This document shows positions 24,179-32,200 of a stretch of 39,389 bases of DNA, in pieces; position 1 is the first letter of the stretch, and each line of letters begins with the position of its first letter. The notes beneath the pieces were generated by a model, which did not search any database, was not told the origin of the DNA, and worked only from the letters and a program-made list of their open reading frames with translations. The stretch spans positions 1 to 39,389 of the forward strand of contig CALDSK010000140.1 of assembly GCA_937911865.1 (NCBI GenBank), written 5' to 3'. The DNA is from an uncultured Synechococcus sp. Lineage in GTDB: Bacteria > Cyanobacteriota > Cyanobacteriia > Phormidesmidales > Phormidesmidaceae. The translations under genes and the position numbers were made by a program.

Positions 24179-27034
24179 ATGAAAAACGTTGCTGATATTT
24201 ATCCGCTTTCGCCTGTACAGCTCGGTATGTTGTTTCATACGCTCGCCGAAGGTGAGCCCGAGTCGTCTGGCGTGTATGTGAACCAATATACCTGCGAGCT
24301 AAAGGGTGTACTACAGCTACCTTTGTTTCAGCAGGCCTGGCAGCAAACGATAGAGCGACATCCGGTGCTGCGAACGGCGTTTTTGTGGGAAGGGTTAGAC
24401 GAGCCGTTGCAGGTGGTGCGCCAGCAGGTGAACTTGCCCTGGCAGATGTTGGATTGGACGGGTGAAGAGAATTGGGAGAAGCGGATAGAAGCCTTTTTGA
24501 GCGGCGATCGCGCCAAGGGTTTTAACCTGGCTAAAGCGCCTCTGCTGCGACTAACCCTCATTCAGCGAAATGAAGAGATAATCCAACTGATATGGACTTC
24601 TCACCATATGCTATTTGACGGCTGGTCTTTGCCTTTGATTTGGCAAGATATGCTGGCGTACTATGAGGCTTTGCTAAAAGAGAGAACACCACAGCTAGAG
24701 CGCGTTAGGCCCTACCGGGACTATATTGCCTGGCAGCAAACCCAGAAGAAAGCAGACTCTGAACAGTTTTGGCGATCGCAGCTCGAAGGCTTTACTGAGC
24801 CAACGCCTTTACCGGCTGTGCTAACAGCTGGGCATAAGGTTTTTCAAGATAAGGTCTCTCAGGGCTATCAACAACAGTCTAAACAGATAGAAATTAAGCC
24901 ACTGACCGAGTTCGCTAGGTCTCAAAGACTAACGCTAAATACGCTTGTGCAAGGGGCCTGGGCACTGCTGTTACATCACTACAGCAGCAAAGCGCAGGTG
25001 ATGTACGGTTCGGTGGTGTCTGGGCGACCTGCCGCGCTTCAGGGCGTTGAGAAGATGGTGGGACTGTTTATTAATACGCTGCCCGTGCTGGCCAGCATTG
25101 ATACCGAAAAATCTGTTGTCGATTGGCTGAAAGATTGTCAACAGCAGCAGCTTAGCCTGAGGGACTATGGAACGGCTGCGCTGAGTGATTTACAGCAGTG
25201 GAGTGATTTGCCAGCAGGTAGTTCACTGTTTGAAAGTATTGTCGTATTTGAAAATTATCCGACAGCAGAGGCCCCTGAGCTGGGGTTTACGGTAGAAAAT
25301 GCTCGCTACTTGGAGCAAAGCAATTACCCGCTGGCGCTGCTGGTTGTTCCGGGTGAATCCTTAGAGCTGATATTGCTACACGATGCGACGAGGTTTGAGC
25401 GTGGTGCGATCGCTCGCCTACTCGAACATCTAGAACTGTTGCTCACTGTATTTCTACAACAGCCCAACTCAAAACTCTCCAATTTGCCTCGACTAACGCT
25501 TACGGAACAACAAGAAATAGACAGCTGGCTACACGCCCATCATCAGAATTCGACGTCGTCGGGTTTACTGATTCATCACATGATTGAAGCGCAGGTCGTC
25601 AAGACACCAAACGCCGAAGCGGTTGTCTTCAACGGCAAATCTTTGACCTACGAAGAATTGAATCAACAGGCAAATCAGTTGGCCTACGAGCTGCGATCGC
25701 GTGGCGTTACCCCTGGCACCTTTGTAGCAGTGTGTCTTAACCGCTCCGTAGACATGGTGGTGTGCACTTTAGCCATTCTCAAAGCGGGCGGTACCTATGT
25801 ACCTCTAGATCCGACCTATCCTGCAGAGCGACTTGCCTATTGCCTGCAAGACACCGCCCCAAAAATAATCTGCACCGACCGTTCTGTTAATGTGCCTTCT
25901 GAGTCGATTCCTTGTCTTTTTGTCGATGACCCTACCCTCTACACTCATCCAATAGAAAACCTGCCAAATCTGTCGCAGTCTAGCGACCTAGCGTATGTAA
26001 TCTACACCTCGGGCTCCACCGGTCAGCCCAAAGGGGTAATGGTGACCCATCAGAACCTAGTAGCCTCTACAGAAGCGCGGTTTACGGTTTATCCAAACAG
26101 CGTTGAGCGCTTTCTTTTACTGTCTTCTATTGCGTTCGATAGTTCTGTTGCTGGTCTGTTTTGGGCATTGTGCCAGGGTGGAGCGCTGGTTGTTGCGCCT
26201 GAGCGCATTGAGCAAGATTTACATCAGCTGTCTAACTTGATAGAAAAAGAGAGAATTACGCATACGCTTTGCGTACCCACGCTTTACGGCTTGCTGATAT
26301 CACAGAATACCCTGACTCAGCTTTCGACCTTGAAAACGGTAATCGTGGCGGGTGAAGCCTGCACTAGGGCTTTAGCCGTGCGGCATTATGCAAAGCTGCC
26401 GCAGGTAGTGCTATGGAATGAATATGGGCCCACAGAAACAACCGTATGGTGTACGGCCTACCGGGTTCCGCCTGCGTTATCGCCTGGACCTGTGGCGATT
26501 GGCTCAGCGATTCCGGGTGTGCGCATTTTGTTGTTGAATGAACAGCGCCGGATAGTGCCTGCTGGCGGTATTGGTGAAATTCACGTGTGTGGTGCTGGCG
26601 TGAGTCAGGGGTACTTGAATCAGCCGGAGCGGACGGAGCAGTCGTTTTTCGCGTCTGCTCAGCTGAGTGAGAAGGTCTTGTCTAAAACACCTTTCTCGCT
26701 GTATAAAACAGGAGATTTGGGGCGCTACAGGGCAGACGGTACGCTGGAATGGTTGGGGCGCTCAGACCGGCAGGTGAAGATTCGTGGGTATCGGATTGAG
26801 CTAGGAGAGATTGAGGAAGTGCTGCGATCGCAACCCAGCATCAAAGAAACCGTCGTCGTTGCTCGCACTACAGCTGCTGCTGCCGAGAGTGTTGCAAGTG
26901 GACGTGCTGAAAGTGGACGTGCTGAAAGTGGAAATGTTGAAAGTGGACGTGTTGAAAGTTTAGCGGAAGCTCTTCTATCCCTCCCGCCTGACGAGGCCGA
27001 GGCGCTTTTAAGTGCGGTTGAGGGAACGGGTTAG
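24179..27034 (+). CDS. NRPS module 2, part 1: C domain (follows an E domain, DCL-like) plus A domain that ends after motif A8
   Basis: The C domain has YPLSPVQLGMLFH and HHMLFDGW (24602). The A domain has A3 YVIYTSGSTGQPKG, A5 NEYGPTETTV, A6 GEIHVCGAGVSQGY, A7 YKTGDL and A8 GRSDRQVKIRGYRIELGEIE, then IKETVVVAR. A (SGRAE)-type repeat and a short acidic helix precede the TAG stop. A9, A10 and a PCP are absent. Confidence 0.85.
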   Translation: MKNVADIYPLSPVQLGMLFHTLAEGEPESSGVYVNQYTCELKGVLQLPLFQQAWQQTIERHPVLRTAFLWEGLDEPLQVVRQQVNLPWQMLDWTGEENWEKRIEAFLSGDRAKGFNLAKAPLLRLTLIQRNEEIIQLIWTSHHMLFDGWSLPLIWQDMLAYYEALLKERTPQLERVRPYRDYIAWQQTQKKADSEQFWRSQLEGFTEPTPLPAVLTAGHKVFQDKVSQGYQQQSKQIEIKPLTEFARSQRLTLNTLVQGAWALLLHHYSSKAQVMYGSVVSGRPAALQGVEKMVGLFINTLPVLASIDTEKSVVDWLKDCQQQQLSLRDYGTAALSDLQQWSDLPAGSSLFESIVVFENYPTAEAPELGFTVENARYLEQSNYPLALLVVPGESLELILLHDATRFERGAIARLLEHLELLLTVFLQQPNSKLSNLPRLTLTEQQEIDSWLHAHHQNSTSSGLLIHHMIEAQVVKTPNAEAVVFNGKSLTYEELNQQANQLAYELRSRGVTPGTFVAVCLNRSVDMVVCTLAILKAGGTYVPLDPTYPAERLAYCLQDTAPKIICTDRSVNVPSESIPCLFVDDPTLYTHPIENLPNLSQSSDLAYVIYTSGSTGQPKGVMVTHQNLVASTEARFTVYPNSVERFLLLSSIAFDSSVAGLFWALCQGGALVVAPERIEQDLHQLSNLIEKERITHTLCVPTLYGLLISQNTLTQLSTLKTVIVAGEACTRALAVRHYAKLPQVVLWNEYGPTETTVWCTAYRVPPALSPGPVAIGSAIPGVRILLLNEQRRIVPAGGIGEIHVCGAGVSQGYLNQPERTEQSFFASAQLSEKVLSKTPFSLYKTGDLGRYRADGTLEWLGRSDRQVKIRGYRIELGEIEEVLRSQPSIKETVVVARTTAAAAESVASGRAESGRAESGNVESGRVESLAEALLSLPPDEAEALLSAVEGTG
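26897..26956 (+). repeat. In-frame 15-nt tandem repeat x4 (AGTGGACGTGCTGAA and variants; SGRAE SGRAE SGNVE SGRVE) in the C-terminal tail of NRPS 24179..27034
   Basis: Four adjacent units at 26897, 26912, 26927 and 26942, read directly. Confidence 0.9.

Positions 27035-32200: not shown

Follow-up and report, generated by a model that had tools for sequence, protein, structure and literature searches.

The closest described relative of the arrangement considered here is found in the nonribosomal peptide synthetase (NRPS) for corallorazine of Corallococcus coralloides, in which an adenylation (A) domain is split at A8/A9 between the proteins Crz1 and Crz2 (PMC11342130, RSC Chem Biol 2024). Crz2 supplies motifs A9-A10 within its first 65 residues; Crz1.2 (C-A-nMT) is inactive alone, addition of Crz2 gives near-quantitative turnover, and glycine is adenylated only when both are present (PMC11342130). 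The same permissive A8/A9 loop is used by interrupted A domains, which are categorised as A8-M-A9, A8-KR-A9, A8-Ox-A9, and A8-MOX-A9, and the 2020 survey of these does not mention split, PP-loop (QueC), or glycosyltransferase cases (PMC8341866). Here, a break in this loop is described for the module 2 A domain of an NRPS cluster on a 39,389-nucleotide contig of an uncultured Synechococcus sp. (CALDSK010000140.1, hereafter the window), where the two halves of the domain, A' (motifs A1-A8) and A'' (motifs A9-A10), belong to different proteins and two complete tailoring genes lie between them.

It is likely, on comparative sequence evidence, that this module 2 A domain is a natural functional split that is completed in trans via docking tails. 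The original prediction, made from the letters of the window alone, had proposed such a split with the two tails as docking elements; to this the comparison across species adds conserved halves, conserved motifs, and a charge-complementary pair of terminal elements, all of which is strong comparative support. The further claim that no NRPS with a trans-completed C-terminal A subdomain had been described is wrong: Crz1/Crz2 appeared in print in 2024, and the arrangement is thus not novel in an absolute sense. A literature search for trans-completed A domains found that case only, the phrase "A domain is split" in PMC11411415 referring to an ordinary interrupted domain and not to a further precedent.

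Anatomy of the Split Domain

The upstream protein, C-A', matches the Pfam families Condensation (aa 5-447, 2e-89) and AMP-binding (aa 470-813, 2.9e-86) and no others, the latter match spanning positions 2-384 of the 384-position profile, so that the ANL-type adenylation core is intact. The motifs YTSGSTGQPKG, NEYGPTE, YKTGD, and GRSDRQVKIRGYRIELGEIE are legible in its sequence, and the strand ETVVVAR comes right after A8, a region modelled by AlphaFold2 (AF2) as a β-hairpin and helix with a per-residue confidence (pLDDT) of 89-97. Neither AMP-binding_C nor PP-binding is matched in this protein by Pfam, and the Pfam scan together with a reading of the sequence finds no A9, A10, or carrier domain. 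The chain instead runs through a low-complexity linker into an acidic tail and stops at a TAG (27032-27034) directly after VESLAEALLSLPPDEAEALLSAVEGTG. Ahead of the tail, Tandem Repeats Finder reports a 15-nt period at 26896-26959 (4.3 copies, 89% matches), which codes for the (G/S)R(A/V)ES units of the linker. This linker is 28 residues long in the window and 5 to 40 aa among homologues, and in relatives this position is taken by low-complexity or repetitive linkers of other kinds, such as AVESSVESAVES in the locus L011.

The missing part of the domain opens the downstream NRPS, in which Pfam finds AMP-binding_C, PP-binding, two Condensation-type domains, a second PP-binding, and Thioesterase, in that order. 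Its first 56 residues have no Pfam match and include a basic head, LEPDALKQRLSALSVQQRSTLAKKLQNR, separated by about 11 residues from the A9-A10 half, whose aa 57-107 align with positions 27-76 of the 76-position AMP-binding_C profile. K107, with its codon at 29539-29541 (counted by hand), is the lysine of A10. A phmmer search of 1.84 billion representatives with aa 1-130 aligns aa ~55-118 with the A9-A10 region of 25,418 proteins, in a hit list dominated by giant multi-module NRPSs whose scores add up. The head usually lies outside these matches and is thus not generic, unlike aa ~55-118; the few matches that seemingly cover it are ordinary A8 helices.

The ten A-domain motifs are therefore not carried by a single polypeptide: a stop codon, two complete genes, and a new start at 29221 separate the halves, which stand 2.2 kb apart. 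The first intervening gene encodes a GT1 glycosyltransferase (GT) with the C-terminal nucleotide-sugar-binding domain of the GT-B family (EryCIII-like_C, 62.3 bits against a cut-off of 31.7; UDPGT, 42.3 bits against 19.5), and the second an Stf0-type sulfotransferase (ST) that matches PF09037 over its full length (profile 1-242 of 244; 97.5 bits against a cut-off of 22). Each gene is an open reading frame (ORF) of its own, out of frame with the NRPS genes and complete with start and stop codon, which sets the locus apart from interrupted A domains with their in-frame inserts. No methyltransferase (MT) is found between the halves in the window by Pfam, and the ORFs 12936-13448 and 13473-14228, which were also scanned, are not MTs either.

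The genes are tightly coupled. A 2-nt gap (TAG CT ATG) joins A' to the GT gene; the GT and ST genes overlap by 14 nt (ATG 28418, stop 28431), with AGGAGG 8 nt upstream of the ATG; and the ST gene meets the downstream NRPS in a TAATG at 29219-29223. No terminator-like site on the + strand and no excess of promoter-like sites occur within 26700-29600, and the tight coupling together with the lack of internal terminators supports operon-type expression. The original prediction had read both the anatomy and these junctions from the sequence, and it was correct in each: Pfam and the alignment to a fused orthologue (see below) place A1-A8 on 24179..27034 and A9-A10 at the opening of the ORF at 29221, both intervening genes score above the Pfam cut-offs, and all three junctions are as it described them. 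It had also placed the break in the loop that carries the PP-loop insert of module 1 of the same cluster, and that insert indeed falls at AMP-binding_C position 29-76. The coordinates of the features are collected in Table 1.

Table 1. Features of the split module 2 adenylation domain and the genes between its halves, in window coordinates.
Feature	Position	Strand	Description
C-A' protein	24179..27034	+	951 aa; condensation domain and adenylation core, motifs A1-A8
A8 core motif GRSDRQVKIRGYRIELGEIE	26756..26815	+	Start of small C-terminal subdomain; read directly
Low-complexity linker TTAAAAESVASGRAESGRAESGNVESGR	26867..26950	+	Between last A' strand and tail; holds 15-nt tandem repeat
C-terminal tail VESLAEALLSLPPDEAEALLSAVEGTG	26951..27031	+	Acidic helix-turn-helix; putative C-terminal docking element
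GT1 glycosyltransferase gene	27037..28431	+	EryCIII-like_C 6e-17, UDPGT 6e-11 (Pfam)
Stf0-type sulfotransferase gene	28418..29221	+	Pfam Sulphotransf 1.1e-27; ATG start 28418
Downstream NRPS	29221..33936	+	1571 aa; head, A9-A10, PCP, E-type C domain, C, PCP, TE (Pfam)
N-terminal head LEPDALKQRLSALSVQQRSTLAKKLQNR	29272..29355	+	Basic helix-kink-helix; putative N-terminal docking element
A9-A10 half-subdomain (QQLVAYVLP...LPAYMMVS...PRTANGKIDVNAL)	29389..29553	+	AMP-binding_C profile match

The layout is genuine and not an assembly artefact, because its junctions recur in three further independent assemblies. A contig of the metagenome-assembled genome (MAG) GCA_050043225.1 has the identical layout at 99.95% identity, ungapped over 21.4 kb, and two metagenome contigs from ENA cross the A'/GT/ST junctions with the same gene order, so the continuous A domain that the original prediction had named as its possible undoing does not appear. 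A further contig, L002, is 99.2% identical to the window and was dropped from a count of synonymous and non-synonymous changes, since its differences look like errors in view of its ~2.7x coverage and an implausible stop within YKTGD.

Conservation of the Break

When C-A' is used as a query, the matches listed fall into about 70 clusters of proteins that are 910-1030 aa long and 45-67% identical to it; these contain Condensation and AMP-binding domains only and all end 50-100 residues past A8. Their sources include Leptolyngbya sp. PCC 7375, Leptolyngbya sp. Heron Island J, Leptothoe, Adonisia, Phormidesmis, Crocosphaera, Xenococcaceae, and Chloroflexota. With A''-PCP-E as the query, about 55 clusters (640-700 aa) are listed, each opening with a head and then A9-A10. 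The A1-A8 motifs are kept in all A' proteins, and the A10 lysine and A9-A10 residues in all A'' proteins. In the C-A' alignment, 250 columns reach at least 95% conservation, as do 186 in the A'' alignment, and the window proteins deviate at three of the former and four of the latter (7/436 overall). Purifying selection on both halves is evident from these alignments. The A' half is not degraded in homologues, a form of decay that the original prediction had considered, and the split is, by this comparison, a conserved design and not decay, because both halves, their core motifs, and the break point are conserved across many species.

The gene order around the break was followed in a locus scan anchored on the GT, with one genome per species, which found 23 cyanobacterial loci carrying the split. 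Wherever the contig reaches far enough, A' terminates ahead of the GT and a head-bearing A'' begins behind it; both ends are seen in 21 of the 23 loci, the incomplete ones being L014, whose contig ends before A'', and L030, whose contig begins past the A' end. The GT stands alone between the halves in about nine loci (e.g., L015, L016, L026), an MT and the GT lie there in seven (e.g., PCC 7375, Adonisia, Heron Island J), and GT, MT, and a Sulfotransfer_3-type ST in three (e.g., Crocosphaera). The combination of GT and Stf0 ST is found in three loci (L022, L032, and L065, from Dapis sp. BLCC M126 and two MAGs) in addition to the window. A fused version with GT and ST inside a continuous A domain, which the original prediction had suggested looking for, is not present among the 240 homologues listed. 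Chloroflexota P0108 is a possible further carrier of the split.

The GTs between the halves are orthologous (53-63% identity) and occupy the same place in all cyanobacterial relatives, whereas the MTs and STs of the gap are not orthologous between lineages. Since the contents of the gap vary in this manner, the site behaves, as judged from these comparisons, as a turnover site for tailoring genes. An ancestral embedded MT as the cause of the split in the cyanobacterial clade is not supported: the MTs of PCC 7375 and Crocosphaera share 32% identity over 56 aa, and neither resembles the MT that is fused to A' in the protein P0094, described below.

The Tail and Head Elements

Conserved sequence elements flank the break on both sides. 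The tail motif xExLVxxLxxLxxxxAExLLxxVE was followed through 74 split homologues, most of which fit the strict pattern while the rest carry a visibly related variant, and five leucines are near-invariant across 40 aligned tails. Every A'' starts with the head motif LxQRVxxLSPxQRxxLAxxL, in which the Arg does not vary and L, S, Q, R, and L hardly do. The two elements co-occur strictly in 19 genome-matched pairs, where tails have a net charge of -2 to -8 and heads of 0 to +6 (-5 and +5 in the window). Modelled as a single sequence without alignment cover, the region is predicted by AF2 to form helices at construct residues 66-79 and 83-95 in the tail and at 117-126 and 129-149 in the head, with pLDDT 72-85 (about 80 for the tail).

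Three arrangements separate the pair from the intervening genes. In Spongiimicrobium salis (Bacteroidota, L067), a tail-bearing A' (1749-4733) is followed by a head-bearing A''-PCP-E protein (4740-6782) with no gene between them, the spacing of the two ORFs being put at about 85 nt, and the GT homologue sits downstream, after a TE-containing protein; the split thus exists outside cyanobacteria and without intervening genes. In L008 and L009, A' runs on past the tail into a fused MT (P0094, 1235 aa) and no GT is present. The fused MT of L008 (10001-14417 of contig ERZ27294458) is GuanidinoAc_N-MeTrfase-like, and the next gene encodes a separate 231-aa head-A9-A10-PCP protein that ends in a DEVETLL-type C-terminal tail of its own. 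In the Xenococcaceae MAG GCA_051439465.1, the halves lie on separate contigs (L012, L078): one carries PCP-NRPS1-C-A' followed by homoserine dehydrogenase and housekeeping genes, and the other carries, at the opposite end of the cluster genes, MT, head-A''-PCP-E, C-PCP-TE, HupE, OCD, acyl-CoA dehydrogenase, and A. A circular permutation that puts A'' upstream of A' may underlie this gene order. Because the pair is present in all three, it travels with the split and not with the GT, and neither adjacency nor translational coupling seems to be required. Tail and head therefore look like a putative docking pair for trans-complementation rather than a device for GT recruitment.

Fused Orthologues and Structural Modelling

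A continuous counterpart of the split domain is available in P0033, a fused C-A-PCP-E orthologue of 1542 aa that is 59% identical to C-A' and collinear with A' plus A''. From aa 902 onward it matches the downstream NRPS from aa 57 (51% identity over 653 aa, E 4e-179), with the A9-A10 half aligned to its aa 902-961. A 12-residue loop, SQLLDPLEKSQR, takes the place of the linker, tail, GT, ST, and head of the window, and P0033 has no head element. It is placed within the split clade in a neighbour-joining distance tree without support values and may represent either a re-fusion or a retained ancestral state. Fused C-A-PCP-E proteins followed by a GT also occur in the Planctomycetota loci L053 and L064 and in L013. 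The GT of L013 (4760-6118) is only 33% identical to the window GT, to which the between-halves GTs are 57-62% identical, and it may represent a different GT1 lineage and not a relocated orthologue.

The two halves were also joined for modelling (A' aa 855-951 to A'' aa 1-125), with an alignment made up of 29 fused homologues only. The resulting AF2 model has a mean pLDDT of 79, rising to 85-97 in the subdomain core and across the A9-A10 half, and its best structural matches are NRPS A domains, including GrsA (1AMU; root-mean-square deviation 2.1 Å, probability 1.00). The N-terminus of the downstream NRPS thus both aligns and models as A9-A10, a point that the original prediction had named as a possible refutation. 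Modelled without an alignment, the joined A domain reaches pLDDT 34 and is unusable.

Proposed Mechanism and Alternative Explanations

In the proposed mechanism, A1-A8, which make up the large N-terminal subdomain and the initial third of the small one, would be made as the end of C-A', and the remainder of the small subdomain, with A9-A10 and the catalytic lysine, at the start of the next NRPS, ahead of its carrier. The acidic tail of A' would dock onto the basic head of A'', probably as a small helical bundle, which would put the strand ETVVVAR beside the strand LVAYVLP and so complete the sheet of the small subdomain. The rebuilt A domain would then adenylate its amino acid and load the PCP located after A10 on the downstream NRPS, while the flexible linkers on the two sides would let the bundle sit apart, in the way that embedded domains do in interrupted A domains. 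The break would at the same time open an intergenic site inside the operon, holding co-transcribed and translationally coupled tailoring genes: always a GT1 in this lineage, joined by the Stf0 ST in the window, with turnover between species. We infer physical docking from the conserved pair and, by analogy with Crz1/Crz2, catalytic competence in trans; the intervening genes would be passengers rather than parts of a complex.

Several observations weigh against this interpretation. The fold of the joined model is largely imposed by the alignment of fused homologues, and since it is largely dictated by homology, the model is a consistency check and not independent proof. A head profile searched against the PDB finds at best 4MYY, a CurG/CurH fusion, at E=2, which is not significant; a tail profile finds nothing relevant there, and Pfam docking families have no match in the window proteins at E<0.01. 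The likeness to docking domains is for this reason a functional analogy and not a family assignment, because similarity to solved examples is not significant. The A9 motif of the window (29485-29493, aa 89-91) is also atypical, reading LPAYMMVS where 51 relatives have LPxYMVP, with Val at the otherwise invariant Pro. In addition, the module 1 A domain (18632..24175) has an in-frame TAA at 20981-20983, between A5 and A6 (EIYL*DKALNRVPLGAVGEI), where relatives with continuous module 1 proteins (1799-1963 aa) have a conserved Leu (EIYLLD or QIYVLD); PCC 7375 lacks the nonsense codon. This TAA is present in the 99.95%-identical MAG contig as well (L001) and reflects either a nonsense mutation of recent date or a consensus error common to both assemblies. 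Given the TAA and the Val for Pro, the pathway may be inactive in this organism even if the architecture works elsewhere; either outcome leaves the conclusion on architecture unaffected.

An alternative that we regard as improbable is that A' is idle or independent of a partner and that the A9-A10 stub is a vestigial linker, the PCP of module 2 being loaded in trans, for example by the A domain of 16623..18290. Trans-loading A domains are known in NRPS biology, and the cluster does contain a stand-alone A-PCP pair. That A domain, however, neighbours an ornithine-cyclodeaminase-like (OCD) protein, an acyl-CoA dehydrogenase, and its own PCP, as is typical of a starter-unit cassette, and the retention of the A10 lysine and A9-A10 in every A'' and of A1-A8 in every A' would be needless for a linker or an idle domain. 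The Crz A1-A8 half is, moreover, inactive alone and requires the A9-A10 protein (PMC11342130).

No better placed is the notion that tail and head serve to recruit GT and ST into one tailoring complex acting on the carrier-bound residue, instead of docking the halves to each other. It would account for the position of the GT orthologue in cyanobacteria, always directly after A' or after one MT gene, and for the translational coupling of all the ORFs. The same pair is nevertheless seen where the halves adjoin directly, where an MT is fused and the GT is absent, and where the halves lie on separate contigs; the MT and ST genes of the gap are not orthologous between lineages; and the GT termini have no conserved docking-like motif. 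The original prediction had offered an assembly of GT and ST with the split domain as one possibility, for which no support is found, the pair being present in L067, L008, and L012/L078 regardless of a GT.

It is very unlikely that the locus is a decayed relic, in which a GT(-ST) cassette landed in the A8/A9 loop and left the halves as pseudogene fragments. The nonsense codon in module 1, the atypical A9 motif, and the existence of fused orthologues would fit such decay, but the split recurs in at least 23 species and in about 70 clusters at 45-67% identity with core motifs intact, a conserved tail and head flank the break, and of 436 highly conserved columns the window halves depart from the consensus in no more than 7. 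Least probable of all, and very nearly dismissed, is an assembly or sequencing artefact or a ligation by split inteins that yields a continuous mature A domain, for which only the unusual layout and a chance-level match between the head profile and an engineered intein (E=2.1) could be cited, against the same junctions in three further independent assemblies, a layout shared by dozens of species, and a tail (~27 aa) and head (~28 aa) that fall far short of the length of intein halves, show no intein block motifs on direct reading, and are plain helices by prediction.

If trans-completion of the module 2 A domain is borne out, the junction between two NRPS subunits does not need to coincide with a catalytic domain boundary, and the single experimental case of Crz1/Crz2 would be extended to a large and phylogenetically broad family, most of it cyanobacterial, that has a clear representative in Bacteroidota (L067) and perhaps another in Chloroflexota (P0108). 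Both ends of the split would be defined by roughly 130 listed protein clusters (about 70 C-A' and 55 A''), and the way in which tailoring genes come to lie inside a domain would be explained. A more tentative proposal, which is possible but falls short of probable, is that the pair is an unclassified intradomain docking system that is portable and that the A8/A9 break is a landing pad for tailoring genes. A portable pair would lend itself to cutting other A domains at A8/A9 or to combining A cores with A-sub/PCP units of different proteins. In public gene calls and precomputed Pfam lists, these modules appear as fragments of the C-A and PCP-C kind, and mining pipelines therefore probably miss the module and mispredict its product.

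The Remainder of the Cluster

Module 1 is itself an interrupted A domain, with an in-frame insert of ~350 aa between A8 and A9 (21002..24175, ORF aa ~100-445). The insert contains two CxxC pairs and an SGGKDS PP-loop, gives weak QueC/ThiI matches, and is kept in cyanobacterial relatives and in Planctomycetota loci (long gaps after A8).

Upstream of module 1, the interval 13473-18626 encodes a HupE/UreJ protein, an OCD ORF (assigned by its match to the OCD_Mu_crystall gene of relatives and not by a Pfam scan of its own), an acyl-CoA dehydrogenase, the stand-alone A protein (16623..18290), and a 79-aa PCP. This gene set resembles cassettes for a dehydrogenated cyclic imino-acid starter, such as pyrrole-2-carboxylate. 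After the TE-containing NRPS, a GT4-like protein and then a second ST of Sulfotransfer_1/3 type are encoded at 33948-36172, the latter an orthologue (58% identity) of the ST with which the PCC 7375 cluster ends. Because the GT4-like protein and second ST follow, the product is probably glycosylated or sulfated more than once, as far as gene content indicates. A literature search for the cluster product (PCC 7375, sulfotransferase) found nothing relevant. Upstream, at 162-6233, lies an apparently unrelated two-partner-secretion pair: the + strand encodes a ShlB/FhaC-type transporter, and the - strand a TPS-domain protein together with a 686-aa ORF that matches nothing in Pfam.

Comparison with Known Systems

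NRPS enzymes have been cut and rejoined in the laboratory, by A-subdomain swapping and by artificial splitting with docking domains or SYNZIPs. Such engineered splits resemble the window in being cut at or near the A domain, with function restored by non-covalent adaptors, and they differ in being laboratory constructs that are mostly cut between domains, whereas the window has a natural and conserved cut inside the small subdomain. If the halves reassemble, nature has already solved where an A domain can be cut and which short adaptors restore its function, and the split would offer a natural template for cutting and rejoining NRPS enzymes.

The tail and head are best compared with helical docking domains, which have hydrophobic cores and electrostatic steering (PMC9113145). 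Class 2 docking domains are ~25-aa termini with two helices per partner that are typical of cyanobacteria and myxobacteria, and four-helix-bundle docking domains form junctions inside the split modules of trans-AT polyketide synthases (PMC9113145). The tail and head are, like these, short two-helix termini, with opposite charges in the window and helices that are predicted only. Known docking domains join whole domains (e.g., ACP/KS or KS/KR), whereas the window pair would join fragments of one catalytic subdomain.

Interrupted A domains are single polypeptides with the auxiliary domain in frame, whereas the window has a stop, separate genes, and a new start. The nearest match is Crz1/Crz2, in which, as in the window, A1-A8 end one ORF and A9-A10 start another that continues into the carrier. 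In Crz, A8 runs on into a fused N-methyltransferase and the ORFs lie next to each other; the window has no fused MT, and GT and ST genes lie between its halves. Crz2 has no room for a head of ~50 aa, whereas conserved helical elements occur at both new termini in the window. An intermediate layout is found in P0094 of L008, where a Crz-like A'-MT is followed by A''-PCP, yet with tail and head. Unlike the single Crz case, the window family is large and widely distributed and typically has one to three tailoring genes between the halves, so that what is new relative to Crz is the lack of a fused MT, the dedicated tail/head pair, the tailoring genes in the gap, and the size of the family.

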